This document shows positions 625-47,393 of a stretch of 64,000 nt of DNA, piece after piece. Within the stretch, counting starts at the first letter, position 1. Every line of letters starts with the position of its first letter. The notes under the pieces were generated by a model. The model was given only the letters and a program-made list of their open reading frames with translations. It was not told the DNA's origin and did no database searches. Origin of the DNA: Botryllus schlosseri (Eukaryota). The stretch is from the NCBI GenBank assembly GCA_051294905.1, contig CM119372.1, positions 28,336,001-28,400,000 on the forward strand, given 5' to 3'. Both the position numbers and the translations under genes were made by a program.

Positions 625-932
625 AAGTTTACGACAACGTAAGCTATAAGCTCCGGTCGCTGCGTTAACAATCAATTCATTAGTGGTGTAACAATGGAGG
701 CTCGGTAAAACGCACAATCATTGAGTGACTGGTTAATAATCCGAACTTATACAAGATACGGCGATTTAGTCAACATCGATTAAGCTACTTGATGACTTGA
801 AATTGACTCGTAAATTTTGCTTCGAGTCACGAGTCAATCTGCATTTTCGAAGCGTCGAGTCAAGTCAACTCAAGTCATTTTTGCAAAGTGACTCGAGTCA
901 AGTCAAGTCATACGAAAAAGTTGTCTCGAGTC
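625..932 (+). mobile_element. Fragment of hAT MITE family B (right part)
   Basis: Matches ~3805-4140 and ~47450-47780; lacks the terminal TIR. Confidence 0.75.
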
Positions 933-934
933 TG

Positions 935-1100
935 ACGTTTATAAATATTTTTTGAAAAGACGGATATTCATGAAATGTCCACGATAGGTAGAGCTTGTAT
1001 CGAAGTGTTAGACAGCAAAAGATCTGCTATTCTCGGTTTAAGATTTGAGGGCCAGATATAATTTTGCAATTTTTGATCCATCGGTACCACATCTCCCCTA
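935..1100 (-). mobile_element. Terminal fragment of TA-flanked MITE family E
   Basis: Ends TGATCCATCGGTACCACATCTCCCC-TA; reverse-complement match to 50984-51145. Confidence 0.8.
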
Positions 1101-1109
1101 CATTATATC

Positions 1110-1692
1110 CAGGGGTGTAATGACTCGAGTCAGACTCGAGTAACGATTTTCTGATGACTCGACTTGACTCGAGTCATTTTCTTAAAATACGGAAATGACT
1201 CGACTCGACTCGACTCGAGTGAATGTGTGTATTGACTCGACTTGGACTCGAGTCATTGCGCATGACTCGAACCAAGTCATATGACTCGAGACTCAGACGG
1301 CCTATACCGACATTTCATTGTCATTTCGAAGAACAGTAAAGTAACCTGCCTATTGGGATTTCGTATATTGGTACTTGTACTTGAAAATACGACCAAAACT
1401 GTTAAAAGTGAGGAAAATTGATATATTATAAATGCGAACCATTCGATATCACCAAACAGAGTTAAATAAGTGGGTTTAACAGGACTTTAACTGGAAACTG
1501 AGCAGTCAACACAATGACTTGGACTCGGACTCGAGTCATAATACAATGACTCGGACTCGAACCTTTGTTCGATTACTTGGACTCGGATTTGACTCGGTGG
1601 TGAATAGAAAATGACTCGACTTGAGTCGAGTCAAAACCATAAAAGATAGATTGACTTGTGACTCGGAGCTTTGTGACTTGGTTACAACCCTG
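1110..1692 (+). mobile_element. hAT MITE family A (GACTC-rich)
   Basis: CAGGGGTGTAA...TTACAACCCTG termini, dense GACTC/GAGTC pentamers; TSD not clean. Confidence 0.9.
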
Positions 1693-2594
1693 ATATATCA
1701 CGGAAAATATGGGCTCCGTTCGAGCAACACCGTTATCCGCAAACCATGGAATTGGCACAAATACGATGATTGGCTGATTTACGACAGTCATAAACCACTA
1801 AAGCAGTGGCTCCGACGACGATACAAGTTGGGATATATTTATGCTCCTCGTTGTTTCAATCGTTATTAGTCGATTACTATTCACGCTTCTATGGAAACTG
1901 GGGCTGGAGCTTTTTGGGTCAGAATAAGGTAAACAGCAGTGCTACCAAATATATTTGAATAATATTCTTCGTGTAGCTATATTATATGCTCGGTGCATTT
2001 TACATACTGCGATTTCGGATGTCGTTTCCGTCTCCGTGGATGAGTATTATTCGATACATTTTTCCAAAAAGTTCCGAACTGAGTGTGCAATTTTGCCTTC
2101 TCCGAATGTAGTGTCAATGTCACAAACTTGTTACTGATGGTTATCGTGAGTGAGAAATCATCACTGCCGACAGATGGCTGTGGCCTATAAACATGTTCGA
2201 CATTTACTGTCTTGAGGGATTATAATTAATTACGTCAAAATATTTATTACTGAAAATTTCAACTGATGTTATAAATGTGCTGGATAATGCGATACTTTTC
2301 CAATTTACTCAGAATGGTCTCGCGGGACGTATGTTTGACACCCCTGCTTTTCATATTATGTATTATGTCTTTGGTCTCAACATGTGTTGGTGTGAAAGCG
2401 CATAAACCTGCAGGATCTTGAATAAACTTGAACAGTCGCTGAGCAGTCGTCACTGAGTTGCTATGCTACCGTTGCTGCATCTAACTATAGTAGCCTATAC
2501 TATATATACGCCTTTATTTTGAATTAGTACGAACTTGCTAGGCCTATATCGTACGCTACGTTGACATGATATCGAAGCTTTTATGGGTTCGCGG

Positions 2595-4152
2595 CAGTGT
2601 TGGGATCAAGTCACTACTTTCGAGTCACGAGTCATTTCGAGTCATTGCACATTTTGACTCGAGTCAAGTCAAGTCAATCGATTTTCGAAGGTGACTCGAG
2701 TCAAGTCAAGTCAGTCGATTTTCGGAGGTGACTCGAGTCAAGTCGAGTCAAGTCAAGTCAAGTCACGAGTCAAGTCACAATTCAAGTCAAATGCCTTTTC
2801 GAGGTAGGCTATGAGGCGTGATTTCGTCATTGTATTTTGCTAGCTGTCTGAAATACAGATTGAGTGGTCATTGATTTAGAACCGATGAACGAATATAGAA
2901 TTAAATATACACGCAAGTAAGGAGCTATATCGCTCACATATAAGTAGAACTAATAAACTACGTAAGTAATTGCACAGCCTAAGTTTATAGTTACCAGCCA
3001 AAATAAAGAAACGAACTGATTAGATGCAATATATTACCCTTTTGCAAATTGATATGATACAATTCGAGCCTGCGCCAATGGTTGAGGACTATATAAACTA
3101 TTTTCGAATTCAATATCAATAAAGCAAGAGGTTTTGTTAAGTTAAGAACACAGAACAGAAATAGACATTCTGCCAGGGTTGGAACCAAGTCACAAGGCTC
3201 CGAGTCACAAGTCAATCTCACTTTTATAGTTTTGACTCGAGTCAACTCGAGTCATTTCAATTCACCACCGAGTCAAGTCCGAGTCCAAGTCAGCGAGCAG
3301 GGGGTCGAGTCCGAGTCATGGAATTATGACTCGAGTCCGAGTCCAAGTCATTGTATAGACTGCTCAGTTTCCAGTTAAAGTCTTGGCAAACTCACTTTTT
3401 ATAACTTTGTTTGGTGATATCGGATGTTTCGCATTTATAATATATCAATTTCCTAACTTTTAGCCGTTTCTGGTCGCATATTTAAGTTCCAGTACCAACA
3501 GACGAAATCCTAATAGTGTGTTGGCTTCGGAATTACAATGAAATGTCGGTCTTGGCCGTCTGAGTCTCGAGTCAATGACTTGGATCGAGTCATGCGCAAT
3601 GACTCGAGAGTCCAAGTCGAGTCAATACACAGATTGACTCAAGTCGAGTCGAGTCATTTCCGTATTTTGAAAAAATGACTCGAGTCAAGTCGAGTCATCA
3701 AAAAATCGTGACTCGAGTCGGACTCGAGTCGAGTCATGACTCGAGTCGAGTCATGACTCGAGTCATTACAACCCTGCATTCTGCTATTAAATTACTTGAC
3801 TATACTAAAGTTTACGACAACGTAGGTAGTTATAGCTTCGATCACTTCGTTTGCGATCAATATATTTGTGAGAGAATATGGAGGCTCAGTAAAACGCACG
3901 ATCATTGACAGATTGGGCGCTCTCACGGGTTACATCGGCGTTGCGCGAACAATCCGAACATATGCAAGAAACAGTGATTTTTATCGACACCGATTACTTG
4001 ATGACTTGAAATTGACTCGTGAATTTTGCTCCGAGTCACGAGTCAATCCACATTTCTGATACGCCGAGTCAAGTCAAGTCAAGTCATTTCAGCAAAGTGA
4101 CTCGAGTCAAATCGAGTCATACGAAAAAGTGACTCGAGTCATCCCAACACTG
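2595..4152 (+). mobile_element. hAT MITE family B containing a nested family A copy
   Basis: TIR CAGTGTTGGGAT; perfect 8-bp TSD GTTCGCGG. Confidence 0.93.
3174..3776 (-). mobile_element. hAT MITE family A nested in family B
   Basis: Perfect 8-bp TSD CATTCTGC; the empty site is visible in the B copy near 43500. Confidence 0.94.
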
Positions 4153-5526: not shown

Positions 5527-5813
5527 TGACACCTCTAAAGAATGAACCCGCGCTTTCGAGTAGTGGGGTAAAGGGTGTGGGTCTGGTTGGCGACGCTCCC
5601 AAGAAGTTTGGTTGATCACCCTACGAGGTGGCGGACTGACGAAGTGCTGTTATGGCCCTGCCTGCACACACCTATGCCTATTGCCTACCATCCATTTAAT
5701 ACAGATATTGTGAGCTATCTTTACGGCGTGGAACAGCTCGGTTATAATTTACATAAGCGTCCGTTGACTCTTAATGTTACGATGTGGACTTCGTTATGTT
5801 GTTTACTACGTGT

Positions 5814-5971
5814 TGTTGTGAATCGAATACACCTCTTTACATCCAAGGCTTTTATTAACTAAGACAAACAATAAATAGAAACGCAATGGTTTTATACCTA
5901 GGACTAGAGTACATAATCAACCAATTAAGCAATAATAACAAAACCGGAATGAGACGATAGCGATCACCACA
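5814..5971 (-). repeat. 3' LTR (158 bp)
   Basis: Direct copy of 15171-15328, no differences seen by eye. Confidence 0.95.
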
Positions 5972-6032
5972 ATCTCCCCGACCAATAAAACAGACATTAG
6001 CGCTGAAAATAACCATTTCAAACAAAATTTAT

Positions 6033-6876
6033 CTAATGGGACACGAAATCCCCATATCTATCAGGAGCTCTTCTTGTCCGTGAAGAGCGTCTCGGAGTCG
6101 AACTGCTTTGAGCATTGTCAGCGGTTTCCGCAGGGATGGTAGCGTCCTCACTACAGAATTCGTCGGCCTGAGTAACCTTTTCTTCTTCGATTTCGCTGGA
6201 GGGCATATCCAAGTCCGATCGAGAAGGAAGAGATTTCTTTTCTTGTGGCAAGGATTCGGTGACATTGGTCATACGCGGATAAGGAGCAAGGTCTGTAGTG
6301 GAGACGGTCGACTCTCTGCCATCTGGATAGCGAATCAAAGCGTATTTTGGATTAGCATCGAGCAAATACACTTTATCGCATAAAGGGTCACTCTTATCGC
6401 GGACGAACTTACGCAGTAGAACAGTGCCCGACTTGAAAAGCCAATCGGGTAATGAAGAGCCATTCATTGATCGTCTTTGAAAAGAGAAAAATCGATCGTG
6501 AGGTGTACAATTTGTAGCCGTGCACAGAAGCGACCTGATACAATGTAATGCGTCTGAGAGTACCTCCTCCCATGAGGACAGTGGCATTTGGTATTGGGCA
6601 AGCAGTAGTTTAACTGTTCTCCAAACAGTTTGGTTGGTTCTCTCACATTGGGAGTTGCCAGTGGGGTGATAAGGGGTTGATTGACTTGTTGCAACACCTT
6701 TCTTCGTTAGGAAATCGTTCATTCTTTTCGACATAAATGACATCGATCTATCGCTATGTACATATTCAGGCAATCCAACGAGAGTGAACAACGTCATTAG
6801 ACATTCGATTACGGTTTCCGACGTCATATTGTAGCATGGAAATGCAAAAGGGAATCGTGAATATTCGTCGACAATG
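6033..6876 (-). CDS. pol: Integrase catalytic core and C-terminus, separated from the rest of pol
   Basis: IVDEYSRFPFAFP...HSDR...YHPTGNSQCERTN (D,D35E region). Removing 6877-12351 plus one TG restores KFILIIVDEY in frame with the upstream pol. Confidence 0.93.
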
Positions 6877-9800
6877 CCCAGCAAACACCCGATCTCCCAC
6901 GGACTTACGGGTACGTCCATAATTGTGCCCAGTCGTCCCACGTCCCACTTTTTGTGACTGAGGACTTGCTCAGTAAGTCACAAATTGACGTCCAATTATG
7001 TAACTCCAAGAGACCCCCAGAGGAAGTAACTTTAAGAGTACTCCTATGCCAGTCACCAATGACCATTCCAGTGGATGTCATAATAGTGTGATGCCTGGAT
7101 GCCACCAACACAGGAGTTGATTTGGATGTCCTTACTGGGAAATCGTTTCTATGAACTCAAATGTGCATTATTCTGCAGTCAATGCTGAATAAGTTGTGTT
7201 GAATACAGTCATGATACAAGTGAAATCTGGTGGAGTGAAGCCGTGAATGTTGATATGGTGTGACTTTCTCATCGCGTGGAACTTCACAAGCCCGGCTGTC
7301 GATCATTGAGGTCGCACAGTGCTAAAGAGGCTCGATATAATGTGCGATACAGAGACACAGTAGCTTATTTTATTGTGACATTACTGGGTCGAAAATGCCC
7401 ACATCAGGGGCAAATACTCGTAATGCATGTGAAATATTCCGACATCAGAACTTGATAATCGTCATGATGGGATTGTGATGACTATTCCAATCACGGAACA
7501 ACGCAGTAAGCAATCCTCTCGGCTATTTCGATAATGGAGTCGAACACGCCTGTTGCTTCAGATTCATCCAACCATAAAACCAGAAGCCTGCCTTCTTCTA
7601 TTTGGCGAGCATCGCGCATGCGCCGCGCGTGTAATTCAATTTGATCACCGTATGTAGCAATGGCGGAGGTACGAATTATAACAGTAAGGGTTTAGTTCAT
7701 AATTGGAAACGTTAACAGCGTGGACTGTGAGATGTCTCTATCATGAGTACCGGAAGGGCAGGGAGCTTGGTATTTGAGTGCTATATTTAATAAACAGCAA
7801 TAGTCTCGATCATCATGAACTGCTGATGCGATATAATGAATTCGATTATATGATTATAGTGACACGGCTGTAATATCACCTACAGACGGAATTGATCGAC
7901 CCGCTGCTAATCAGTAACTCATGCAAGCCGATAATTCTTGTAGTAGGCTACATTTGATACTATATGATAATGTATTGATCATAGAAGTCTGATTTATTGT
8001 GCTCTGTTCCATAATGTCTCACAAGCAATAACTTGCCATTCATGTGCATCCTGTGAAAAGTTTTACAAGGATTTCCTAGGACTGCAGGACCCAATCGGCA
8101 AACCAGATGCCGCATAAAGTAATGTACCGGTATTTTATAACATATCGGTATATACTGAATTTTGAAATGTTATGTAGGCTAATAGAAATGTGGAATGTTC
8201 CTTTATGGAATGTGAGATTGCTGAATTTGTGGATGCATGAAGATTGTAGCATCACATTAACATCCATTTTCGTATTTTTGTGTCCACAACAGTATATAAC
8301 CATAACCATCTATAATAGCGTTAATAAAATAATTGAGGCTTTCAGTGAACATGTAAGAATTTTTGGCAATATTGGTTTATATTTAGGGTATTTTAGGAAC
8401 AACATTATAATAGTTTGTTAGCCCATCTTTAACTTCGCTCTAATCAAAGGATACTCAAACATTAAACCAATTATAAACTCTATAAACTTAACATGTTCAT
8501 GGCCAGGTGCAGACGGGTTGTTGGCAATGTTACCGCAATGTTGGCACGGCCTCCGTGCATACTTTTATTGCTTGATTATAACTTTCGATATTAGTATATA
8601 TACACGGAAACATTGCCTACATTGCAGCAGTATCAAAAAAGTAGGCTATGGATGGGCCCTAAGGAAGGCTGATTGCTCATGGTCATCTTGCCGTCGATAA
8701 GAAAACACAACCTTATTATCAATGGATTCTTACTATATATGGATGGGACATATCTGTGTTTGTGTATACAAAGTTACTTCATTTCTACCAGGAGACTAGA
8801 TATTGAACAGGCAATGTTATGTAGTTCTAAACTTCAGAGGAAGGCGCCGCAGTGGTGCATTGTTCATGGATCAAGATGTTAAATTATGTAAGTTGAAGTT
8901 ACGAACTATATATGATGATTTATGATATTTCATTAATTAGCAATTTATTACCCTGAAAAAAGTGCCATCGATGATGCGGAAATATACAATTGACGGTGGT
9001 TCGCAATCGGGCTGCTAAAACGTGCTGGCTGGAACTATAATTTTATTATAAACTGCATTGTTATAGTGGCACAGAGCGTGTAATTTCAGTAGGCTGTCTT
9101 GAAAATAGTCACATACTTGGCTCGAATCATAAGAATTGATACTCGTTCGAGATTTGAGTAACCATACCAATGTGCTCAGCCCTACTGATTAGTCATTGTA
9201 GTGAGCAGAATGTGCGAATGGTCCAGCTTCAACTTCATTGTCTTTTTTTTACAGGATATTCTAGATTCCTGGCTTGGCTTCTTGACAAATGGCTTCACTA
9301 CAAACATTATAATATCTTTGATTATTTAGATCGGCAATGTCTTCAATTGATAGTGTTCAACAACGTCAAGAACACTGTACAAAGTATGTCTTGGTGACTG
9401 GAACCAAAAACGTTCGGAAGAACTACTGCCACATGAAACAAGCGTTGCTGTAAAATCGGTGCTGCGTCATCCTCAGGAAAAAGTCAAAAGGTATAAAACA
9501 TTGAATACACTTCGTGGAAACCAGAGGCTGTGAAAGTAATCATCTTTTGAACTGAAGTAGATGTAATGTTATGGATTTATACACTCCTAGAGGTAACAAC
9601 TTTAAAGTTGCGTTAGATCTACTCGAAATGGAAGTAGATAATGCACTTCTGGAAAGTATACAAATAATAAGTTTGAAAAAGTAGATTTGGTTGAGGTGTT
9701 GCATAGGCATTCTTAGCGTTTAATCATAGTTGGTGGTCAAAGTACATATTGTGTGCACCGGAGTTTAAATAGTTGCAACGACTTGAATTTCTACTGCTGT

Positions 9801-12351
9801 ACAATTAGCCATTTACCAGGCTTGTAAAATTCACTTCAAAATGAAGTAAAAAGTTCTAAAAGAAGATTTTGTGCTCTATTCTATCCCAGGGGTTCTTGAA
9901 CAGGGCCCGTAGACCCTTTTGTGGTACGATATGCATAGTGGAATTAGACCTATATGCTGTGGTTCTCGTGCTATGCGCAATTTTATGTGAATTGACTATC
10001 TGATGTTAATATAGGTACCATCAGAAATTGTGTTGAAAATAAATTTTGGGCTGCTAGAAATCTTGTGAGTAGCATGAAGTGTGCGATCGCTAAGGCTAAG
10101 AAACAATGCTGTTTACTATGGCTAAAGTTGTTGATATGTTCCAATAATAATCGAAGCCAACATCTAATTCTGAATTAATTTGACTTTAGTAATGACAGTA
10201 GCAACAGCCTACTTATCGCGACTATATCAAAACCCGGATTAGGCTACACCGCTCAAATGCTCTGATACCAGATCAAATTTCAGTAGATTTTAAAATACAA
10301 CTGTGACACGTCAAAGGTCCACCAACTGAAATAGTATAACCCAGAGTTTGATGATGTCATGATGCATCCTATTGCATCATCTCTATAACTCATTATTTTA
10401 ACAAATTATGCCCAGCACAAAAATAATGTTATTGAACTATTCAAAACTGTGATTTTTTTCGTGTCAAACGTGAATAATACAATAGTAAATTACATTCTCG
10501 AGATGTTTTTGGAATGCCTGTCTGCAAGCTCCCGTCAAATAAGGCCTACATGGAAATTATACATTGAATATCCCTATCTTGCTGCGTCGTCAAAAATCCG
10601 GAAATTGACCTGCGACCACATTTGAAGTTGAAGCCTCTGCTCTATATGATGTGACAACATTATGAACAAGGAAAAGTTGAAATATCTATCTCGTATGCGA
10701 GTTCGAAGAAAATGAATACCGGCTCTACATCATATCGAAGAATGTTTTTTAGATTTAAGATAATTCCTATTTTATTGTACTTTGAGACAATACATTTGTC
10801 ATTCACACGATCGTGCGTAGCTACGTCTTACATGTGCCATGTTCTGCGATATGACGAATCTATGTTTTTAGGCCTCGCAGTGGTACATAGAATCGGAATT
10901 CGAATTCTTGTTGAATACAATTTATGTACCCTAAAAGATCATCTGTTTCGACTTATCGTTACTCTATTGAGTCTATTCAGATTCGTGGCAAGCCCTAGTT
11001 GTAGTAGGTGATAGTTCCAAATAAAGGTGGTCAAAGTATTCATCGTTAGTACCGTACTAAATAGTATAAATAGCGATTAACAAGACATCAAACTACTTCC
11101 AAGTGTCGACATGGTCAAAATATGGAGACTTGAGGAATGTCGTAGTTGTATGCTTTTAAACAGAGATAAGGAAAGCAATCATGTTCAGCACTCAATTAGA
11201 AATATTTGTAGCGTCAGTAGTCCAGTACAAGTAAGAGTAACGCAATGTATTTCTACTCGGGTTCAAGCACTCAAGCAGCGATATACACGGCTTCTCAAAA
11301 CTATTTTAGGTAAAGCAGAAGTTCTGGAAAGTACTGAAGTATGTACTTGAGGTGTTTCCACAATTTAATGATTGACGGGTTTCATACTCTGTATCACAAC
11401 GTCAGAAGCTCCCGCACTCGAGTAGACATTGTAGTATCGTCATAAATTATCACTCAGCACAAGTAGAAGTAGTGGATCACAATTAATGCATGAGGGAATA
11501 GAAATTGAAGCAGCTCTGACGCAAATTTCATGTGCTATGTCAGCAGAGTGGCTCTACAAATGATTTGCTGACATTGTTGTATATGTTTCAGGCAAAACAA
11601 AGACCAAGAAGAAAACTGTTGTTGCAACCAAGTTTATTGCGAATACGCACTCGCGCTCTTAACATGATGCGGTGCAAATGATGCATCGTTTTATAATATG
11701 CAATGTAAATTTTACTTATGATTGCTCCATGCTTTTCCCTGTTTTAGTTGTATTAGCAGTTGTACTTTTTCAAAGTCATGTGACACGTTTATTTCTAATT
11801 TCATGATGCACTTCAATTGAAATGTTTGTAATGGTAATATAAAATTGACTTAGAACTTGCTGTTATATACAAAATCCCACTGACACATTTATTCGTAGTG
11901 ATTTCCTGATCGATTTTTCACGTAAGCCTGAACTTTGTTTACCAGTAATAGTTCATTAGTTAATGTTGTACTTGTATTTTGCAATTGTCGTTTTACAGTA
12001 ACCCAATATAAACAGTTCGATAGTTTATATGATGTTGAATTCCATGTAATTGCACCAGGTTAGGTGGGGAGTCCTGATATAGTAATCCTGAGGAATAGAA
12101 CAGGTGGTAAATGACATATCCATAGGGAGTCACGTCGCGTCCACAGTAGGTCTGACGCATCCATAGGGAGTCAAGTCACGTTCACAGCAGATCCAATGAG
12201 TCCATATGGAGTCGCTTCACGTCCATAGTAGACCAACTGAGGAAGTGTTTAGGACGCTTCTAGTAGTCGACAAATCCACTCCAGGGAAGTAACACTGGGC
12301 GTCCTGCGTCTTTTCCGCAGGAAGTCAACTGGACATCGGGTGTTTGCTGGG
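6877..12351. mobile_element. 5475-bp TIR DNA transposon, CMC/EnSpm-like (CCCAG ends, 2-bp TSD), no transposase recognised
   Basis: 17-bp perfect TIR CCCAGCAAACACCCGAT (6877-6893 and 12335-12351); TG duplicated at 6875-6876 and 12352-12353; subterminal GACGTCC/GATGTCC motifs and ~40-bp tandem units at 12120-12240. Superfamily call is inference from the termini and TSD length. Confidence 0.85.
9887..10400. mobile_element. Old hAT-type MITE fragment carried inside the CMC-like element
   Basis: Begins CAGGGGTTCTT; diverged reverse-complement match to ~37660-38239. Confidence 0.65.
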
Positions 12352-14044
12352 TGATTAAAATGAATTTACGTTTACCGGGGACCGGACCTTTGAAATCGAT
12401 TGATATTCTTTGCCAGGGATAAATGGCTTTGATCAATTGGTGAGAATCTCCTTTATAAAATCTAGGTTTGAGTTCTGCGCATACACGGCAGCTGGAACAG
12501 ATACGTTTCACGTCTTCCGTGGAATACGGTAAATTCTTGGATTTAACAAAGTGGGCCAATCGGCTAACTCCGGGATGGCCAAGTTGTGCATGGATTTCAT
12601 TCAAATTTTGACCTGAACCGGTTACGGAGCAAATACGAGACAAGGTGTCTGCAGCGACGTTTTCGATTCCCGCGCGATGTGAAATGTCATAGTTGAAAGA
12701 GCTGAGTTCAAGACGCCATAGCGCAAGTTTTGTATTCTTGATTTTGCTGTGATGCTTCTTCTGAAATATGTAAGATAACGCTCTTTGATCTGTAACAAGA
12801 AGGAATTTCTGATAGGCAAGCAAGTAGTTCCACTTCCGAACCGATTCAATGATTGCGAGAGCTTCTTTCTCAATAGCGGGGTAGTTCGATTCTGTCTTTG
12901 TAAGTGTGCGAGAGAAGAACGCTACAGGCCGATCACACTGATTCAAAACTGCTGCAATGGCGCAGTTTGACGCGTCACACTCAACTGTAAATGGTTGGTC
13001 TTCGTAAATGCATCCTAGACAAGAGTCCATTATCTCTTTCTTCAATTGATGAAAAGCAGCAATAGCATCAGGTCCCAAAGGAAAATTGGATGAACGAATA
13101 AGAGGCCTAATCTTAGCCGAGAAATTGTGAATCCATTTGGAATAATATGAAAACATACCGCATATACGTTTCAAACCTTCAGAGTCCGTTGGCGCGGCCA
13201 TTTCCAGAAGCGGCTTCATGTGGTCAGGGTCCGGACTTATGTTGCCGTGAGATATTTTGTTCCCAAGCAATTGTATTTCTTCGATTCCAAAACTTGATTT
13301 CTCTGTATTGATGGTTAGGTGACAAGCTGTTGCGGAATCTAAAAATGCTTTCAAGCGGATATCATGCTCTTCCTTGGTCGCGCCATAGATTGTAATATCA
13401 TCCAAATACGCCACTACACCCTGTAATTGATGCTTTGAAATAAACGAATCGATGTAACGTTGATAAGCCGCTACTCCATTCGTGACGCCGAACGGTAATC
13501 TGCAAAATTGGTAAAGTGAACCGCAAGCGGCGAACGCCGTGAAAGGTCTGTCATCAGGGTGTAACGGGACTTGATGGTAAGCCGATTTCAAATCAACGGC
13601 TGAATAGTACTTGCCTTTAGAGACTTCATTGATAACATCTTCTATACGTGGCAGTGGATAAGCATCCAAATTGGTGTACCTGTTGATAGATACTGAATAG
13701 TCAATGACAAGTCTTCGTTTATGCCGCGCGTCCCTGGTTACTAGTGGCTGAGCACGCCAAGGTGAATGACTCGGTTCTATGATACCGTCACTGAGGAGCT
13801 TCTGTACTTCTCCTTTAATAAATTCGTTATCTTCTTTGCTATACCTTCGAGAAGGAGCGGCAATAGGTTTGCAATCTGGAGTCAAGAATTGGAATATACG
13901 AAGCGGTTCATCGACTATGGAAGTAACAAGTGCCAAGTGAGAGTTTACGCCTACTGTAAATGGCTCGTTCTTGCCATTTTGAATTCGAAAATAACCTTCT
14001 TGTGCAATCTCATGAAATCTAGTCCCAGGACGAAGTCTGCACAT
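12352..14044 (-). CDS. pol: Pol: reverse transcriptase, RNase H and integrase N-terminal part
   Basis: RT motifs (DLKSAYHQ, LPFG, YLDD), RNase H (ECDAS, EKEALAI, TDQRAL, ADTLSR), integrase HHCC and the first catalytic D (SIDFKGP). Truncated at the nested transposon; the last ~30 aa of the listed ORF are insert read-through. Confidence 0.95.
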
Positions 14045-15138
14045 AAATCATCGATTATGCCAAATTGATGAGTGTACTCACGTGACGCCACTATGAATAC
14101 GACGGTAACGTGTCCTAGCACATCGGTGGCGCATTTGTTGGAAGCCAATTTGATACTGTAAGTTGGTCCCTGTGGAAACAAACCTAGTTTGATGGCAATA
14201 TCCAGTTTGATGAAACATTCAGCAGCTCCCGAATCGAGCATAGCATCGAATATCTGCTGTGCAGTTGTAAGGGGTATGGTCGAGTCCTTCAAACATTTCG
14301 GAGCAGCAGCCAGGTATTTGCTTTTTGATTTACAGAACTTTCTGAAATGTCCAAGTCTGCCACATTTATAACATTCAACCATCGATGCTGGGCATTGGTC
14401 GCGCTTAGCGACATGGGTACCTCCACAGAACGTGCATTCTTCGATTGATTTGACTTCGGACACTCTGCTAATTGCAGAAACCGTGTTGAGCTGAGGATCC
14501 GGTGCGTCTCTCGCAGGCCGGCTGGGATCGTTAGAGGTGCTTGCAACGAAACGTGCATCGATGTCATTAACTTTATAGGAAATGGAAAATTCTTGAGCTT
14601 TCTCCAGTGAAATAGCAGTGATAATCGCTTTTTGCAGTGGCAGTTCCTCGCATTCAAGCAGTCTCGTACGTATATGGGAAGATTTCAAACCTCTGATGAA
14701 AGCATCTCTTATGGATTCTTGGCGATATTGCTCGGCGGTGACACTCTTGAAATCACAATCCTTTGCGAGCGCTGATAAGCTTTGATGAAATTCCTGAACG
14801 GTCTCGCTGGTATCTTGCGCTCTACTTGAGAGAAGATGTCTTGAAAATATAACATTTTTCTTAGGTTTGTAAAGATCCTGTAATAACTTCAGAGCTTCGT
14901 CGTAGGATTGCTTTTCTTCTATCAATGCGTAGACGTCCGCCGAAATGAATCCACACAATAATGCAAGCTTATCTACTGTGGCATCGGCAAAGGATGCAGC
15001 AGCTATGTAGGATTCCAGTTGTCGTTCCCAATGACAGAATGACTTCTGAACGGCCGGAGCATTCGGCAACACCTCAAGAGTAGGTACCCTTATGAGAATA
15101 GGGCATCGGCGGTTTTCTGCTCCTCCATCGACCGACAT
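13951..15138 (-). CDS. gag: Gag-protease of the Gypsy element
   Basis: Capsid-like region (IRDAFIRGL), two Zn knuckles (CTFCGGTH...C and CYKCGRLGHFRKFC), aspartic protease motif MLDSGA and the LGLDF motif. Confidence 0.93.
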   Translation of the reverse strand: MSVDGGAENRRCPILIRVPTLEVLPNAPAVQKSFCHWERQLESYIAAASFADATVDKLALLCGFISADVYALIEEKQSYDEALKLLQDLYKPKKNVIFSRHLLSSRAQDTSETVQEFHQSLSALAKDCDFKSVTAEQYRQESIRDAFIRGLKSSHIRTRLLECEELPLQKAIITAISLEKAQEFSISYKVNDIDARFVASTSNDPSRPARDAPDPQLNTVSAISRVSEVKSIEECTFCGGTHVAKRDQCPASMVECYKCGRLGHFRKFCKSKSKYLAAAPKCLKDSTIPLTTAQQIFDAMLDSGAAECFIKLDIAIKLGLFPQGPTYSIKLASNKCATDVLGHVTVVFIVASREYTHQFGIIDDLCADFVLGLDFMRLHKKVIFEFKMARTSHLQ

Positions 15139-15170
15139 GACTAAAGCTGCTTTGTCTTAGTTAATAAAAT

Positions 15171-15328
15171 TGTTGTGAATCGAATACACCTCTTTACATC
15201 CAAGGCTTTTATTAACTAAGACAAACAATAAATAGAAACGCAATGGTTTTATACCTAGGACTAGAGTACATAATCAACCAATTAAGCAATAATAACAAAA
15301 CCGGAATGAGACGATAGCGATCACCACA
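15171..15328 (-). repeat. 5' LTR (158 bp) with TATA box and AATAAA
   Basis: Minus strand TGTGGTG...CACAACA; TATAAAA at 15253-15247; AATAAA at 15213-15208. Confidence 0.95.
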
Positions 15329-16253
15329 CGTGTGGATATAATTCATTACATAACGACGTGCAAAGCCAATACTTTTGATTTAATGATGAGCAATGGAATT
15401 CGATGATCCAGTGATTCTGCTCTCAATAACCTGACGTTCACGACTATTCAGTTTATGGTATAATCCTTGTACATACAATAAGTAAAACGCAATAGTTCTT
15501 TTATAAAAACGTCGATTAGATCAGGGCTCATCAGCCGGGTATATCGTAACTCTAGAACTAGGGTGTATCACTGGAATGGGATGTTCTGGGGTGTACCACA
15601 CTCTTAACAAAAGGTGCTACACGAAAACAGAACCCAACTCAGAATATCGCAGTCATAAATCCTACGTACTTTCCTACATTCCTCCGTGCATGTATAATTT
15701 GGATTAAAATGTTGTACTCGATTTATACCGCGATATAAGTCTGAGGTAGCTTCTGGTTTCGTTCGTGTGTCGTGGGTGTATATTCACACCGTTATATCAC
15801 CGGTGGTACACGGGTGGAAACTGGAAGTACACAGTATTTTCGCTAAGAGTGTATATCCACATTACAAGAGACCGCTGACTAGCTATCACAATAAATAGGC
15901 AAGTTTATGCTTCAGGTTGACCGAATTTGCAATATCGCATATGATGTTCATATCAACTGTACGCAGGTTGTAAATTACATTCCTTTTCTGATGTCATAAG
16001 CAAATGCTTCTCCTCGTCATTTAACTGTTTGGTTTGGGAGTAGAACAGGGGGAAGTTAACATGTGTTCAGCTTGCGATATCTGTCTTAATTGGTTCTCGA
16101 GAACACCGCCTGTATAGCTCAGACATGTTGAATTGATACTTCATGCGAGATGCATATAAATAACGCAGCGGTGGCGAGGCCAGCGGGGTCTCGGGGGCCG
16201 AGTTTGAGAACCACTGTGTTAGATGGTGGCGCGATACCCGGATTCGTGATTAA

Positions 16254-20808: not shown

Positions 20809-23800
20809 TCAAGAAGGTATCTTGCCGAAGTATGGATTGCCGGTCAAGCTGAGCGCATCTTTCATCTGCTTCACCTCTGAAATGTAAATATTTTAGTCTA
20901 CAGTATTTTACCTAGGGAGTGTTTTCGTAAACGGAAAGGTGGCACGATGCAGGGTTGTAATGACTCGACTCGAGTCAGACTCGAGTCACGATTTTCGGAT
21001 GACTCGACTCGAGTCATTTTCTCAAAATACGGAAATGACTCGACTCGAGTCAATCTGTGTATTGACTCGACTTAGACTCGACTCATTGCGCATGACTCGA
21101 AGCAAGTCATTGACTCGAGATTCAGACGGCCAAGACCGACATTTCGTTATAATTTCGAAGCCAACACATTATTGGGATTTCGTTTGTTGGTACTGGTGCT
21201 TGAAAATGCGACCAGAAACTGCTAAAAGTGAGGAAAATTGATATATTATAAATGCGAACCATTCAATATCACCAAACAGAGTTAAAAAAGTGGGTTTAGG
21301 AAGACTTTAACTGGAAACTGAGCAGTCAACACAATGACTTGGACTCGGACTCGAGTCATAATACAATGACTCAGACTCGATCCTCTGTTCGCTGACTTGG
21401 ACTCGGACTTGACTCGGTGGGAATTGAAAATGACTCGACTTGACTCGAGTCAAAAATATAAAAGTGAGATTGACTTGTGACTCGGAGCCTTGTGACTTGG
21501 TTACAACCCTGGCTCGATGTCTCCTGAGAATAATGCGATGCATTCTTGAACTGGAAACTAGCCGGATTTGTGCCGAAACTTGAGAGTGTTCCACAATGGC
21601 AATCAGCCTAATTTTAATTTGATTCTAAACAGCATCATCAGCGCCGTACCATGGACATTACGGCTGCTCGAAACAACGTAACAATTTTGGCTAAATTCCA
21701 ACCGGTAGAGGCGAATATATTGCAGTTGAAAGTATTGGATTTGAAAAAAATAGCATTGACGTTGGGTTATATTACAAATGTTAACTAAAAACTCAAATAA
21801 CTCCACTTCTACGGGTCGGGATTTAGCCAAAATTGTTATGCACCGTTTTTTAGACATCTTAACAATGCCATGGGTAGCCAGTAAATTTTGAAATAAAAAA
21901 AATATTAATGAGAAATTCAAAATTTTAATATTGTAATAGCTTCGTGTTTGAATGGAATGGAAAATGTTGTGTGCATCGTTTTTTTAGGCAACCTGTAAAT
22001 ACAACAAATACTATTTTGAACACCCCTAATGCACATATACACCGATGCTTGATTTTTCATCTGATACTGGGACCTCGGACGGATCTGAAAACATATCTGA
22101 ATTGGAAACAACTGGTGAATACAATATAGCTGAACAGCAGAAGTTCCTAATTGAGAACCGTGAAAAGCCAATCAAAATCGTAGGAAGTTAGCAAAAAAGT
22201 CGGACTAATTAAATCGCGGATTTACTGGAAACTCGTTAATTGATCAATCCAATGATTAGGAACATAGGCTATATGATCCTCACAGCAATAAGTAGAATTT
22301 CCGATGGTAATAAGCATATTGTAGAATCATGAACGAGAGTCCGAATTCTTGGATTTAAGATGATCATTTCGGTTAGTGTCGACATGATTCTGACAGTTTC
22401 AGTGCCTTTCCGGAACGTTCAGAATAATATTTTATATGGTTACAACAACCGTATCAATATCAACAAATATACCTGCTCAGGGGTGCGTGAGAACACTACA
22501 AAAGTTAGGGGTCTGGTTAGAAAGAGTTTAAGAAATCCAGCTGTAGAGAGACTTTTTGGTAGGTCCGAGATACAGTATCAGTGTTCCAACTATATAATGC
22601 AAATAATGTGGTCGCTATGCTCTGGACTTCCGACTGAATAGATCCCAGCCTAATTTCCTCCATCAAAAACATGCACTTTAAAAGTATCTCAGATGCTTCT
22701 TGCTCTTTTGTGTTGGCCGCTGCTTAAAGACCGCTTCTGATAAAGGCTGCACTAATGCAAAGCAGGGTTGTAATGACTCGAGTCACGATTTCCTGATGAC
22801 TCAACTTGGACTCAGTCATTGCACAGGACTTGAACCAAGTCATATGACTCGAGACTCAGACAGCCAAGACCGTCATTTCATTGTAATTTCAAAGAATAGT
22901 AAAGAAGCCACACTATTGGGATTTCGTCTATTGGTATGGGCACTTGAAGATGAAAATAGAAACTGCTAAAAGTGAGGATAACTAGTATGGTATAAATGCA
23001 AACGATTCGATATCACCAAACAGAGTTATAAAAAGTTGGTTTAATAAGACTTTAACTGGAAACTGAGCAGTCACCACAATGACTTGGACTCGGACCTGAC
23101 TCGGTGGTGAATTGAAAATGACTCGACTTGAGTCAAAACTATAAAAGTGAGATTGACTTGTGACTTGGTTACAACCCCGATGCACTGCTCTGTGTAACAT
23201 AATCGGAAATTTGTCTCCTATGTTCATTGCCTTACCCAGCTTGAGTCGCTCGTTTTCCTGAGTCAATTCGTTATTCCTAGAGTTCAGAAAAACAGCGTCT
23301 TGTATCGCGTCGTCCAGCAATCCGCGCCAGCGGTTGTCAAGGTCCACTTTGAACTCTTCAAAAACCTAAACAATGGACAGATAAGCACGAAATTGTAGTC
23401 CGATATTTGGCGGCCTGTCCAATGACGCCATCTCTTCATCTACTATGGTCGTTATATATTCCTTGCCATAAGTAAATTGTTACTGCTATAAAATAGGGAT
23501 TCATCATACGACGTCACTGTTAGACCAGTACATGCATGAGTAATTAAGGAGACTGATTAGAAGCTACTCCCAATGGAAACTTCCGGTAAGCCAAAGCATT
23601 AGACTTTGCATCGTGCTGTAGTAGGGTTGTAATGACTCGAGTCACGATTTTTTGGTGACTCGACTTGACTCGAGTGATATTTTCAAATGCGTATGATGAC
23701 TCTACTCGAGTCGATTTTTGTATTGACTCAACTTGTACTCGAGTCACTGCGCAAGTCATATGACTGGAAGCTAGGACGTTCAAGACAGACATTTCGTTGC

Positions 23801-26800
23801 AACTTCGAAGAAGAATAAAGTTACCACATTATTGGTATTCGTCTATCAGGCCTGACACTTGGGAAATAGGCCCAGAAACTGTTAAGACTGAGGAAAATCA
23901 CTGTATTATGAATGCAAGCAGAGTTCAAAAAGTGGGTGTGACCGGATTGTACTAAAAACTGAACAGTGACCATAATGACTTGGACTCGGACTCAAGTCAA
24001 AACGCTATGACTCAGACTCAAACCTCTACCTGCTGACTTGGACTCGGACTTGACTCGGTGGTGAATTGAAAATGACTCAACTTGACTCGAGTCAAAACTA
24101 GAAAAGTGAGATTGACTTGTGACTCGGAACCTTGCGACTTGGTTACAACCCTGTGCTGTAGGACTGATGTATGAAGACCAGAGGAGTTCACTTATTAGGG
24201 AAAAGTTGTATTTCTTCAACTATTAACAGAATGGGGAAAGAACACCATGTAAGCCATTTGAGATGGAAACATTATTTTTTACCCTGCTGCTGTTTTACTG
24301 TAATTAAATGAAGTTGATAAGGGGTGATGTATATTACAAATTACAATCACTAATTACCAGTTTTAGATTTAATATGTCCCATTTTTCCATGAAATATTGC
24401 TTTATCAGTAAAAATCTGTTGCAAAATTCCAATATCTATCTGTTTCTAATTGAACTCAATTACCAGTTATTGCCAGATCAGTGCTCGATGCATGACGTAT
24501 GTAGATAAAAAAAACGGCATCGACTTGTAACTAAAATAGAAGCAGATTCTACTGAACCAGTACTGGATTTCATTTGATATTACCAGACCATCATCTTACA
24601 CATCGATTTTGCCTACCGACACATGCCGTTTCATTTTTATCGCTTGTCCATTTTATGTTATCCTCTGAGCGTACCTCATATCTTACAGTAGTTGTCTTTT
24701 CAAAATAATCTGTAGGCTAAGGCGAGTTCATCCTATAGCTTGTGGTATTTTGAAATGATGAAATTATTAATAAACGAATACTGCGCTTCCAAGAAAACAC
24801 ACATTGAATGGAATCCTATTTGAAATGATTGCAAAAAAATAAGGCTGGTATACAGAAGGGATGCAGACACTTTCTCAGCATGTGAGTTCGTTATGTAATG
24901 ATCAAGTCATGATGGCGCCACTGTAGAACTAACAACTGACATTTTTGTCATGGCACAATTGGACCGAACCAATCAGCCAGGGATTGTAACCGCCGATAAC
25001 CAGCATGATACCAGCAGTTTTGTGGTGTTCCAGCAGCATCACTGGAGCATAGGTGTATTTCGATGTCAATAGATCGAAACCGACCTCTCTGTAAGCACGG
25101 AAAGTCTGCAGATTTTGAAGCTGCTGAATTTCCATTTGCTTTGAATGTTTCTCCACCAGTATGTTGACATGATCTTCCAACAAGCGTTTTTCCTTACGTA
25201 ACACGTCCAGCTGTCCAAATATAAAACCATTAGTAACATGTACCGCTCCATAGCTCAATGGATACACTGCAATTTTTTGTCGCTATCTGAATCGAATTTT
25301 CAAAAATATTCATTAATAACGGATATAAAATGAAAGAAGTTCTTCAAAACACCCATGTCTTTAATGGTAACCTGCAGTGCACATATAATTGGAGTGTAGG
25401 AACATGGCACATATCAAGGGAAAAGAGTGCAATTATCTTGAGGCGCATGATTGGGATTATCTGTTTTGTTATACAATTGAATACGGTAACATATTCATAT
25501 TGTGATAAACCAGAATATTTTCGGCTGACATACGTCAGGGGCAATCGTCAGCAACTGGTAGAGAATTCATAAGAACTTTGTGTATGATCAGTCTTATCTC
25601 TAATCATGACATCATGTGCATGGAATTTTGAATAATTGAGGAGAGCCGAGAGCTTAAGCTCAATGTAATGGGTTTGAATCAGTGGTTCCCTCTCAACCTT
25701 AATTATAACCTGTTCCTTGCTGGAGTGAGTCAAGCATTGAGTCGCTTTTGTAAAAAAAGAATTGCCACACAGAATCGACCCATTTGCTATTTTAGCCCTT
25801 CTTTTATCTCAAAATACCCCTTTGAGAACCATTAAGTCAGTGGTGGCCAACCTCTTCGGCCAAAGGGCCACATGAGATTTACGAGCCACAGCACGAGCCA
25901 CTTGAATGTTGATGGCCTTTTTTTAGTCGAACCGAATTGCGTAACATTGAAAACAAAACTTATATTACTACACATTAGAATTGATAACAATTATGTCATG
26001 AAAACTCTGAGTGTCTTCATGCGCTGGCTGCGAGAATCGCGAAATTTTTTCAAAGTTAACAAATGAATTCGATCACTAATATTGTTACTTGCATGCATTG
26101 CGGGTTGCCTCTGCATACCATTGATGGGCTAATTTGGTAAGGACAGGATTATTCGGGGTTTGGATATATCAATGTTGAACATTTCAGCGAACATGCGTCT
26201 ATCATTTAGAGCAGAGGCGTCATCGCCAAAGATCTTACTGCGAGCACACACGCGAAGACGCATGTTGGACAACAAGTTCCCTACTAATTGCGTTATAGTC
26301 ATCAACATCCCTAGTTTCACGGGTGAGGCTAATCAAATTTTGGTTGGCCTTGTAATTTTACCTAGATAATTATTTTTTTTGATGTTACGATAAATTTTGA
26401 GAATTACCTCGCGGGCCCCTGAGACACATAAACTCCTGTTTGCATAAATTAAGTACTTTTTGTGGTAGCTAAAAGGTATGTATTCAAACTTTTCATATCA
26501 CCCCATGCAGTTTTGAAGTTATTACGTGCAATGTTCCCTCTAATTTTCCACGCGGCTGCGCGCACTGACCAACTCACTGTGCGGTCCCTTGGACAACAGT
26601 GTGTAACAACTAAAAAAAGTTCATCACACTTCGGCTTTTTCCTGCGCGGCACATATTTTTCTGGGCGTGGCGACTTTGTCAGCAGTGATCAGCCGCGCAC
26701 GCGCATAGCTTTGAGGGAACATTGATTACGATTGATACTCGAATCGAAGCCTAACAGCCCACTCGATTTGGAATCCAATAACTCAGTCACTCCATTTGGG

Positions 26801-35800: not shown

Positions 35801-38800
35801 CGAGTCCGGAAGCGCTGTAAATTAGCGTGATCGCTAGCGAACAATTAAATACGCCGCTTATCAACGCGTATTATGTAACCTCCGCGGCGATTTCCGCAAG
35901 GCAAAATGTCCCAGTTGTTATGGAATCTGTTCTATGATGGCACCGATTTCAGGTTGTTCAAACTTTTCTCGTCTTTTACAAATCAAGCCTTGACAAACAT
36001 CTTCTGATGGTTATGTTTAAGTATTAGCCGAATTCAATTACGCATGCACGGCCCACGCACAATCGCACATGTCAGCGGACATTCGATGTCATTCAGTTTG
36101 GCGCTAATCGCTAATCAGCATACACCTAATGGCATTGTCTCCAAGCCATCGAGAGATAGGAGCCAATGTATGCTAGGCTCGAGACGCGATAGTTGGCCAG
36201 CGATGATATTTTTCGCACCAGGCCTGTTGCAGATGCGATTGTGTAGGCAAGCGATGATATCGAGCGCGCCAATGCAGATGCGACAGTGCAGGCTAGCTAT
36301 GGTATAGTACGCACGGGGCCTACTGCTGATGTGATTGTTCAAGCCAGTGAACCTAGGCTTGTTGGAGACGCGATAAATCAGGCAAGCGTCTAATGCGACG
36401 ATTGCCGCGCGCACGGCAATCAATGACATAATTTCGCGATCATCTCAGCGGGAAATCGCGTCGCGTTACATTGTGTACAGACGAATCTCGCTGATTGGCA
36501 ACACGCTTTTCGCTAATTGGCCTCGCGCAACGGGTTACCTCGCTCACATAGCAGCAGCAGGTAATCTCGTAAACTGAAATACATTGCGATTTGATCTAAA
36601 TAACACAATCGGGGGTTTATGCCGATACGTGCCAAACCGAATTCTAGGTATGCCGCATACCTAAGAAAATGTCCAGGTATGCATGGCACACCTTGCATAC
36701 CCAGGTTCGGCGCCTATGCCTGCCACACTCTTCCCATGCCATACATATAATTTTCAAAATCAACATACTTCCATACCCTATTCGAAACATTTTCCATGCT
36801 CAGTTGCACAATATCTCAGATTGACGGATACTATACTATTTTTGATACGAGGAAATTCTCAGTAGTTTACATTTGAATTTCTTGGGATGGAATTATCCAT
36901 TTAAGCAGCCCTGATTTGACAATTCAATTTCTGAACGCTGTGTCAAACAGGCCGATCAATGATAAAGGTTATTTAATCATAGAAGATGAAATGTTAGGTA
37001 TATACGCCAGCATGACATTCTTTGCGAATCATGGCCCACTGGTGGTATGACAAACAACAGTGTGACTGCGAATACACTGTTTTTCTCGCAAGACGTCCTT
37101 GTAATAACAGTATTGTAATTACTATCCATTACCATGATATCAAAAATACGTCCGTCAAAATTGTACTTACATTCCAAGTTTGTCGTTCTTTCTTACACGC
37201 AATTTTCTGGAATGAGGATTGAGAATGTCCGTCACTTCACCATTTCCCCCAATCTAAACAGTTAATTACAATATGTCTCATCAGAATTACCCGTTTCTGC
37301 TATCTGCTGAAATGCTCATTTTGATCAGGATCTACAAGTAGTACCTATGCGCGTGCTCATTCATCATAATTCTCATTGAGGTGAGGCTAGAGCAGAGGTC
37401 TCAAACTCAAATGTGCTCGCGGGGCCAATTTCCTAGTTTTCAATGACGCCGCGGGCCACAGCATCAATAACATGGAAATTCAATGTAGGCTATAATTTCC
37501 AAGTAGGCTTTATTTGACGCGACCTTGCAGACAGGCATTCCGCAAACATCGTGGAAATATAATTTACTATTGTACTATTCAAGCCTGACACGAAAAAAAA
37601 TCACATTTTCCGGGCCGGGGATAATTCTTTTAATTAATGAGTTATAGACATCATGTGAGAGGAAGCATCATGACATCGTAAAACTGTCGGGTTATAATAT
37701 TGCAGCTAGTGGACCTTTGACGTGCCACAAATTTATGTAGAATAAATATATTTTAAAATCTGCTGAAGATTGATCTGATATCAGAGCATTTGAGTGGTGC
37801 AGCCTAATCCTGCTTTTGATATAGTCGTGATAAGTATCGGCTATTATTACTGCCATTGCCAAAGTCACATTAAATCAGCGTTGGATCTTGCCTTCGATTA
37901 TTATTGGAACATATCAATAACAGCTTAAATATAATGATTATTGAGCCATAGTGATAGCATTGCTTCTTAACCTTTTAGCGATCGTACGCCTCGTGCTTCT
38001 AATAAGATTTCTCGTTGCCCCTGTAGATTTTTAAAACAATTTCTGACGGTACCTATATTAAAATCAGAAAGCCCACTCGCATAAAATCGCGCGTAGCGTG
38101 AAGACTATTTTCCAGTTGAATAAATTGGCCAAGAAAATATCCCACAGCATATGGGCCTAATTCCACAATGCATCTCGTACACCCTGATGTGGTGCTTCGT
38201 ACCGAGATAGGGTCTACGGACCCTGTTTGAGAACCCCTGAAATAGAAATGTCCAATCGGCGAAGAATTTATTGGTGTCACAGCTGTAGAGCGTATTACTA
38301 CTACTTTACTCGCCACCGATAATAACATGGATGAAAAGAGCAACCAACACCCAGCATGTAACCAACTATACGTCACAGGGGTCATGGAATACCAATGGTT
38401 GCCATACTGACCTGATTAGATATATACCCCTCGCAACGCAAACTACGACCTTTTGATATATTACTTTTCCCCATGACAGTTTAATAGATTGTTGCATCCG
38501 TAGGATTACCAAGTCACCATTCCGAGTCGCAAGTCCTTCTCTGATATTAACGTTTGACTCGACTCGACTGGCGTCATTTTTATTTAATCACTCAGTCAAT
38601 CCAAAATCGAGTAATTTTACGAGAAGGTCGCACCAAACCAAATCACAATTTTCAGTCTCGAATCATCAACGGGTCATGTTTTATCATCATTCACTAGAAA
38701 TGTGACGTAATACCTGTTCTTCTTCCGCATGGTAGCTTTTAAAAGTGATGTGATAGTGAAGTTTGTTGGGATTTCTTTGATTTTTATAGTAGTTTTTGCG

Positions 38801-42868: not shown

Positions 42869-44161
42869 CAGTGGTTTCCAAATTTTTTCATCTCGTGGAC
42901 CCCTTTGGCCGAAAGTTGAGCCAAAACCCCAGTGTTGGGATCAAGTCATTATACCTTCGAGTCACGAGTCATATCGAGTCATTGCACAGTTTGATTCAAG
43001 TCAAGTAAAGTCAATCGATTTTCGAATGTGACTCAAGTCACTCGAATTTTAGAGGTGACTCGAGTCAAGTCGAGTCAAGTCAGGTCAAGTCACGAGTCAA
43101 GTCGCAATTCGAGTCAAGTTGCCTTTTCGGAGTAGAGGCATGATTATGTCATTGCATTTTGCTAGCTGTCTGAAATACAGATTGAGTGGTCATTGATTCG
43201 TAACCGATGGACGAATACAGAGTTAAATATACACTCAGAAAGGGGCTGTATCGCTCACATATACATACATACATAGAACTGCTAAACTATGTAAGTAATT
43301 GCATTGCCTCAGTTTATAGTTACCTGTCAAAATAGAGAATAGAGAAACGAATTGATAAGATGCAATGCATTACCCATTTACAAATAGATATGATACAATT
43401 TGAGCCTGCGCTAATAGTTGAGGACTATGTAAACCATATTCGATTTCAATTTCAATAAAACAAGAGGTTTTGTTAAGGTAAGAACATAGAACAGAAATAG
43501 ACATTTTGCTATTAAATTACTTCACTATACAAGTTTATGACATCGCAAGCTGTAAGCTTCGATCACTTCGTTTGCGGTCAATTTATTTGTGAGAGTACAA
43601 TAGAGGCTCAGTAAAACGCACGATCATTGAATGATTGGTCGCGCTCTCACGGGTTACACCAGATCCAGGGTCCAGTAACATGTTTAGTAAATCGTCGTAC
43701 ATCACAATAAACTAAAATAGTAGTGTTTTTTTTCTTCACGCTCGATGACTTCAAATATTTTTCACGTTAGCTCAGATGTTGGCTTAAAAAGATGAACATT
43801 TTCGCAAGCGTCCTTGTTGTGCTGCATTCGGCATGACTTTTCCCTGCTTAGTGGCAATTTGGTTGAGAAGCTGTCGCGGGCCAAACGAAATCGTCTCGCG
43901 AGCCTCGCGTTTTCAGGGGCTGGAATATCTACGGAAAGGAAATATTTCAAGAAGCATTTAGACATATATCTAGCTAAGAATCTACCAAAAGAAACATACA
44001 GTCGTAAAGAACTAGTTTCATACTTTACATTTCTGTCATAAAAGTCCAAAAATCGTTCGAACCCATAGTGCATCTTGCGTCACTACCCTGAAGCCAGATT
44101 CCCCCCTAAAAATCTCAAAACTCCCCCCAGGGGGGAATTCCCCCCCGGTTGGGAACCACTG
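42869..44161. mobile_element. Charlie-type hAT element containing a truncated family B copy (42930-~43662)
   Basis: CAGTGGTTTCCAA ... TTGGGAACCACTG; TSD GCCTAGCC / GCCTAGAC (7/8). Confidence 0.8.
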
Positions 44162-44281
44162 GCCTAGACGAAGAGTGAGCCAAGCTCCAAAGTCGACAGC
44201 AGAGTCCTGAAAGTGGACGCACGTAAGCGAGAGTTAATGAAGAGTGGGAGTGCGCGTGCAAGCGAAAGTCGTCCTCATTAC

Positions 44282-47215: not shown

Positions 47216-47239
47216 ATAATAGCATCTCATGAAATGCGT

Positions 47240-47393
47240 CGGAGCCGGAGCTAGTCCTCAAATAACGGGCTCCAGCTCCGGCTCCGGCTTTGGCTTAATT
47301 TTATGTAGAGCTCCGGCTCCGGCTCCGGCTCCAGCTCCGGTGAAAATGCACGGCTCCGGCGCTCCTTGCTCCAGCTCCGGTTCCAAAGCCCTG
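47240..47393. mobile_element. Right end of a (GGCTCC)n hAT MITE
   Basis: GGCTCC hexamer runs ending TCCAAAGCCCTG; left end not found. Confidence 0.7.

Follow-up and report, generated by a model that had tools for sequence, protein, structure and literature searches.

Sequence signs of tRNA-free self-priming in an animal Ty3/Gypsy lineage represented in Botryllus schlosseri

To our knowledge, self-priming of reverse transcription has been proven only for Tf1 of fission yeast, and it is commonly taken to characterise the Tf1/sushi chromoviruses; the local structure of Tf1 RNA is said to have been described by Lin and Levin in 1997 and 1998. In the accessible parts of the literature on these elements, the first 11 bases of Tf1 RNA pair with the primer-binding site (PBS), with a cut by RNase H between bases 11 and 12 (PMC7175516), the same priming is proposed for Tj1 of S. 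japonicus and for vertebrate sushi elements (PMC4600332), and Tf2 is reported to use alternative starts, some of which include the self-primer while others do not (PMC5341516). According to the available portion of PMC6317226, self-priming is also predicted for plant Tcn1 (Gypsy) and for the Copia elements TAR, Houba and Osr-1, and because TAR is Copia, self-priming has already been proposed outside the chromoviruses. The fungal GalEa Copia elements offer another comparison: as far as the accessible text of PMC5445492 goes, they carry a 'Conserved Hairpin Site', an inverted repeat at the PBS position, and no tRNA PBS. Both GalEa arms lie downstream of the LTR, with no LTR complement, whereas in the element described here one arm lies inside the LTR.

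We analysed a 64-kb window, the whole stretch of 64,000 nucleotides from position 28,336,001 to 28,400,000 of Botryllus schlosseri contig CM119372.1, whose minus strand holds a Ty3/Gypsy element at 15328-5814 with 158-nt LTRs and TG...CA ends (Table 1). The Pfam domains of the element (zinc knuckle, protease, RT, RNase H, integrase) stand in Gypsy order (gag-PR-RT-RH-IN), and the closest solved structure to its RT is that of Ty3. The window copy is broken, as a frameshift near 13978 parts the gag-protease ORF from the RT frame and a 5.5-kb insertion divides the integrase gene. Other copies of the family are 4.0 kb long with a single 1209-aa ORF, and the elements of the lineage are compact (4.0-4.3 kb, a single ORF, a zinc-knuckle gag), unlike those of the Tf1 group.

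Table 1. Features of the Gypsy element, in window coordinates
Feature	Position	Strand	Remarks
Target-site duplication, upstream copy	15329..15333	-	5 bp (ACACG)
5' LTR	15171..15328	-	158 nt, TG...CA, same sequence as 3' LTR
TATAAAA, possible TATA box	15247..15253	-	family trait; lineage-wide conservation absent
LTR segment complementary to PBS	15207..15225	-	predicted self-primer
Family-conserved part of predicted self-primer segment	15222-15207	-	
Initiator-like TTAGT inside LTR segment	15219-15215	-	
AATAAA inside LTR segment	15213-15208	-	
Predicted second helix	15188..15206	-	GCCTT 15206-15202 / GAGGT 15192-15188; starts at predicted cut 15207/15206
PBS position	15151..15169	-	1 nt past LTR (spacer base 15170); complements LTR segment, without TGG
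gag (zinc knuckle) and protease ORF	13951..15138	-	ATG at 15138
RT, RNase H and integrase zinc-binding part of pol	12352..14047	-	
Insertion dividing integrase gene	6877..12351	not assigned (.)	5.5 kb
Integrase core and C-terminal part	6033..6876	-	without chromodomain or SH3_Tf2-1 match
Polypurine tract	5972..5986	-	
3' LTR	5814..5971	-	second primer-segment copy, no complement after it
Target-site duplication, downstream copy	5809..5813	-	5 bp

The insertion at 6877-12351 has terminal inverted repeats of about 21 nt beginning CCC and a 2-bp duplication, and it resembles an animal EnSpm/CACTA-type DNA transposon; 37491-38097 carries inverted matches to parts of it, and five small ORFs, three of them within it, gave no Pfam match. 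The window holds repeats of other kinds as well. Two 473-nt arms (62171-62643 and 63528-64000), 100% complementary, 884 nt apart and reaching the window end, may be a fold-back element of recent age or else a feature of the assembly, and a long imperfect palindrome at 44277-47220, with about 1.1 kb per arm at 81-90%, is probably a MITE-like or fold-back element. Dispersed repeats rich in GACTCGAGTC/GTCAA units occur in both orientations at 750-4150, 20950-24150, 42950-43700 and 47390-47780, and a 41-nt tandem repeat of about 12 copies fills 61181-61814.

No TGG follows the 5' LTR of the window element. One base (15170) past that LTR, the element strand reads TTTTATTAACTAAGACAAA (15169-15151), the exact 19-nt complement of 15225-15207, and the TATAAAA that starts at 15253 lies 28 nt upstream of 15225; a sequence-only reading of this DNA had reported both the perfect complement without a TGG and the spacing from TATAAAA, and both are exact. 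In having a PBS complementary to an LTR segment and no tRNA site, the locus is like Tf1 and Tf2 of Schizosaccharomyces pombe, Tj1 and Tf1/sushi elements, insofar as the accessible parts of the sources describe them. The 75-nt fold has a z of -5.2, and 0 of 200 shuffles were as stable. Might the match be an inverted repeat that arose by chance where A and T abound, or the scar of a single template switch? The segment is indeed A/T-rich, but the longest complement in 20,000 shuffles (LTR versus post-LTR 25-mer) was 13 nt against the observed 19, and families whose RTs are 47-63% identical, as well as loci from other datasets, keep the pairing although its letters differ. The covariation counts that follow rule this explanation out, and we give it a negligible chance of being right.

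An RT search of the genome gave 126 matches, of which 40 at 47-63% identity were retrieved, long open frames being preferred, and a metagenome scan gave 80 loci, of which 11 were too short and 27 had no gag match, leaving 42. The lineage was tested by a procedure free of LTR calling, which takes the best exact stem of at least 10 nt within a 270-nt stretch about the start of gag. Of 39 own-genome relatives, 33 have a fold-back upstream of gag (the 40th has too little upstream DNA, and the stem of L059, a host repeat, is scored as a miss), as do 29 of the 42 metagenome loci with enough upstream DNA; among shuffled controls, 0-2 of 20 had a stem of this kind. The remaining 6 of 39 own-genome and 13 of 42 metagenome loci (19 of 81) have no stem of at least 10 nt at the gag start, and some of them, in the part of the 19 that was looked at, show single mismatches or decayed gag ends. 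In relatives with both LTRs, the complement starts directly after the LTR end. LTR ends were mis-set for L031, L034, L042, L047, L050, L066, L067, L071 and L077, which leaves the gag-start counts unaffected.

From the fold-back loci, 30 representatives were picked, 13 from the same genome and 17 from ten datasets, some of them 84-98% alike. Their duplexes are 12-19 nt long, and the LTR segment lies 22-70 nt from the PBS; a single nucleotide separates the CA end of the LTR from the complement in 28, two nucleotides do so in the other two, and a TGG follows the 5' LTR in 0 of 30. Counted by position, pairing is 30/30 to position 12 (at positions 1-10 by selection of the matches), 19-26/30 at positions 13-16 and 8-10/30 beyond 16. 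The letters differ from family to family: there are 28 distinct 12-nt PBS sequences among the 30 representatives, with up to four pair types at inner positions, and the mean pairing is 14.5 nt for an element's own segment and PBS versus 4.7 nt for cross-family swaps, 4 of 870 of which reach at least 12 nt. The fold-back is a lineage-wide, covarying feature, with about 12 nt common across the lineage. The compensatory covariation that the sequence-only reading had suggested looking for in relatives is present in these counts, while its 19-nt duplex does not extend to the lineage, in which pairing is complete to 12 nt and found in about a third of representatives beyond 16, near the 11 nt of Tf1. 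L097, compared with four 98%-identical siblings, has one change in both LTR segment copies together with the matching PBS change, as would be expected were the PBS copied from the primer; it is a single event. The L073, L074 and L082 families have a two-base spacer and no RCC junction and still show a 13-15-nt fold-back, possibly as a second register of the same mechanism, and L073 groups with a Ciona protein in the RT-RH tree described below.

The other Gypsy clades of the same genome served as a control, in which forty loci yielded 39 LTR pairs. A TGG lies within 16 nt of the LTR in 37 of the 39, the other two (L197 and L198) having mis-set ends, and the longest LTR complement is 9 nt, with no fold-back. 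Among L191-L236 we also noted at least five different TGG-type primer sites, and duplications of 4 bp or 5 bp according to clade.

Within the family of the window copy, a DNA search of the genome gave 42 matches; 30 were retrieved, and 14 of these are 5' LTRs with leader. Pairing runs unbroken for at least 19 nt in nine of the 14, ends at 16 in two and has internal mismatches in three, and by this split the kept part of the duplex within the family is 16 nt, the outer three pairs not being conserved. Duplex changes without a match occur beside near-identical or identical LTRs in L002, L008, L054, L062 and L088. For example, both identical LTRs of L054 share a primer-segment change that the PBS does not match, an intermediate to be expected if PBS rewriting comes one cycle later.

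The exact 16-mer occurs at 48 sites in the 495-Mb genome, and its reversed control at 0. The DNA search had already identified 42 of the 48 as family LTRs or PBSs, and the remaining six are family LTR copies or PBS; in other words, no host RNA gene in the genome contains the exact 16-mer, all 48 sites being within the family. This bears on whether the primer might be a tRNA of the host, a piece of one or another small RNA, and the LTR match incidental, an arrangement for which half-tRNA priming without a 3'-end match, known in Copia lineages (in the available portion of PMC6317226), would be a precedent. That all 48 sites belong to the family, that each of the 28 different PBS sequences has its match in the LTR of the same element, and that the longest match of 41 tRNA sequences (a small sample, of four kinds) is 6 nt together make such a primer very improbable; the comparison with host tRNAs had been proposed in the sequence-only reading, and its outcome, within that small sample, agrees with tRNA-independence.

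Self-priming is likely because relatives keep the pairing between PBS and LTR with different letters, and we judge that the element probably primes reverse transcription in the manner of Tf1, with RNA of its own LTR segment in place of a tRNA. The earlier proposal was of tRNA-independent self-priming with a longer duplex; covariation, the lack of a TGG and a 16-mer confined to the family argue for its first part, and the longer duplex is not supported as a trait of the lineage. Speaking against self-priming are the 19 of 81 loci that have no stem and the copies with near-identical or identical LTRs whose duplex changes are unmatched. In the proposed mechanism, transcription would start within or just upstream of the segment, at about 15217-15225, the first 11-19 nt of the RNA would fold onto the PBS, and a second short helix would stack at the duplex junction. 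RNase H of the element's RT would then likely cut between AAAA and GCC (15207/15206), as in Tf1, and the freed 3' end would prime minus-strand DNA through U5, while the short R remaining downstream of the cut would permit strand transfer. The primer would be copied during plus-strand synthesis, and each cycle would thereby rewrite the PBS. In families with AATAAA inside the segment, the duplex may have the further effect of concealing the 5' poly(A) signal.

Two features of the representatives concern the predicted cut. RCC follows the segment in 26 of 30, giving TAAA/RCC at the predicted cut, and 25 of 30 predicted folds have the first base of the loop in a pair, versus 8.1 expected when the rest of the loop is shuffled; a second helix is thus predicted to begin exactly where a Tf1-type cut would fall. 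The Tf1 group, in the accessible parts of its literature, likewise has a core duplex of 11-13 nt and an extra helix beside the predicted cut.

Where would transcription begin? Raw RNA reads on the 5' end of a family copy numbered 0, 33, 22 and 13, too few and without a pile-up of starts or ends, and those on the 5' part of a second family were likewise too few, with no start or end pile-up. TATAWA is found within 70 nt upstream of the segment end in 2 of 30 representatives. Judged against the familiar initiator consensus, an initiator-like NNAGY stands at pair positions 13-9, with A at position 11 in 20 of 30 and G at position 10 in 26 of 30; in the window copy, position 11 is 15217 and the 16-nt core ends at 15222. 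A TATA-based start at 15225, as the sequence-only reading expected, is not supported by the two TATAWA cases in 30, and the initiator-like motif points instead to about 15217-15222. With a start at the A of position 11, the primer would be 11 nt long, like that of Tf1. The self-priming model needs merely a start at or upstream of about 15217, because the inner 11 pairs of the intramolecular duplex form in predicted folds, with a mean probability of 0.98-0.99, for 5' ends from 15260 to 15217.

The same primer sequence could also be supplied not by the folded 5' end but by the 3' R copy, by a second packaged genome or by a short LTR transcript ending near the poly(A) signal. The segment is present in both LTRs, covariation is blind to which copy pairs, and the frequent overlap of the segment with a poly(A) signal is where such short transcripts would end. 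We nevertheless consider such a source unlikely, in view of the high probability of the intramolecular duplex over that whole range of 5' ends and of the short distance from segment to PBS, followed by a conserved second helix, which is like the local structure of Tf1.

The poly(A) signal raises a further question, namely whether the duplex serves priming at all. The paired segment holds AATAAA in 14 and ATTAAA in 5 of the 30 representatives, and because these 19 segments hold a signal, the pairing could also be maintained through poly(A) control; the duplex might mask the signal of the 5' LTR for read-through, with priming by some other route, and a complement found only behind the 5' LTR is what 5'-specific occlusion requires. 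Masking alone is weakened as an explanation, however, because AATAAA and ATTAAA are both missing from 11 of 30 segments, four of them (L069, L075, L087 and L095) with a free AATAAA downstream in the loop. The distance of the complement from the LTR end is also fixed, at 1-2 nt, which is the point from which minus-strand synthesis has to set out, and no other primer site was found, so that we regard masking without priming as quite unlikely; in the 19 signal-bearing representatives it may be a second role of a self-priming duplex.

How does the lineage relate to known Gypsy clades? A quick RT-RH tree of 48 rows, which omits 6 of 27 fold-back loci whose RT-RH frame is broken, sets 22 fold-back elements apart from all 19 TGG elements on a branch with 100% support and a length of 1.86. 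On the fold-back side are also relatives from Ciona, Trichuris, Papilio, Maniola, Macrosiphum, Macrosteles and Armadillidium, known from proteins alone. The lineage is like the Mag lineage (A, B and C clades) in its short LTRs, 5-bp target duplication, zinc-knuckle gag and lack of a chromodomain. Its RT identity to Mag-type elements of the same genome, in contrast, is 26-32%, and those elements carry TGG sites and form a separate group with 97% support. The 'Mag-like' description of the sequence-only reading does not survive this comparison, and we rejected Mag as an assignment on the grounds of the long branch, the RT identity and the absence of a tRNA-type PBS. The Mag-type references are own-genome elements, not named type elements, and the gag and PBS motifs used to label them are presumably typical of Mag. 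The label further draws on LTR-end motifs in PMC3601003 Table 3. As another name for the clade, Cigr-1 was dropped, since supplement 1 of PMC6238403, in its accessible part, puts Cigr-1 under Mag; going by the portions of the papers available, the lineage may be one of the MolGy clades (PMC6238403) or a relative of Saci-2 (PMC2582038).

The relationship to Tf1/sushi is the more consequential one. A chromodomain or SH3_Tf2-1 domain at the integrase C-terminus was found in 0 of 6 polyproteins at E 0.05, a difference from Tf1/sushi chromoviruses that bears out the earlier remark that no chromodomain is visible; this absence is not decisive alone, because some chromoviruses lack a chromodomain. 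An SH3_Tf2-1 search of the genome gave no match and is a weak test, its control being silent too. A chromovirus reference search returned 15 viral-contig loci at 32-34% identity and, from plasmids, one unrelated record, and no relative of the lineage was among the viral contigs searched; a protein cluster search returned generic Gag clusters only. Against Ty3, the RT-RH of the lineage, with its long branch, scores 166 bits, versus 204 (Mag-type), 259 (Gmr1/Osvaldo-type) and 262 (CsRn1-type) in tRNA-primed clades of the same genome, and we count this too as a difference from the Tf1 group; these labels follow, in part, PMC3601003 Table 3 and PMC2582038. An origin independent of Tf1/sushi is plausible, as argued from domain content and Ty3 score, and because the branch of the lineage is long, a relationship to Tf1/sushi could be hidden.

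The lineage differs from the Tf1 group also in that its primer segment often overlaps a poly(A) signal and in that self-priming is here read from sequence alone. In the latter respect it is like Tcn1 and TAR/Houba/Osr-1, whose self-priming was likewise inferred from sequence, and unlike them it is an animal Gypsy lineage, Tcn1 being from plants and grouping with Tf1/sushi and TAR being a plant Copia element. In the literature searched, a scope that leaves most subscription journals and Repbase outside, we found no description of self-priming in a non-chromovirus animal Gypsy lineage. Some animal Gypsy families are said to be called self-primed in Repbase entries, and an earlier note is possible.

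Taking these observations together, we tentatively offer a broader proposal, to which we give somewhat less than an even chance: that a widespread animal Gypsy lineage with no relation to chromoviruses, ranging from tunicates to nematodes, insects and crustaceans, would have evolved tRNA-free priming independently, with an initiator-started primer of 11-16 nt, a cut at a conserved TAAA/RCC two-helix junction, a masking role of that primer, in most families, for the 5' poly(A) signal, and a PBS rewritten per cycle, the primer and its site drifting jointly, free of host RNA. The self-priming mechanism itself is not new. If the proposal is true, a large non-chromovirus animal lineage, with its dozens of covarying cases, would make self-priming a repeated solution, and it would explain why annotation tools based on the PBS miss such elements. 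Its naturally covarying sequences would also serve to predict where the cut falls and which helix RNase H needs, and it would imply, for the elements themselves, an escape from control by tRNA fragments.
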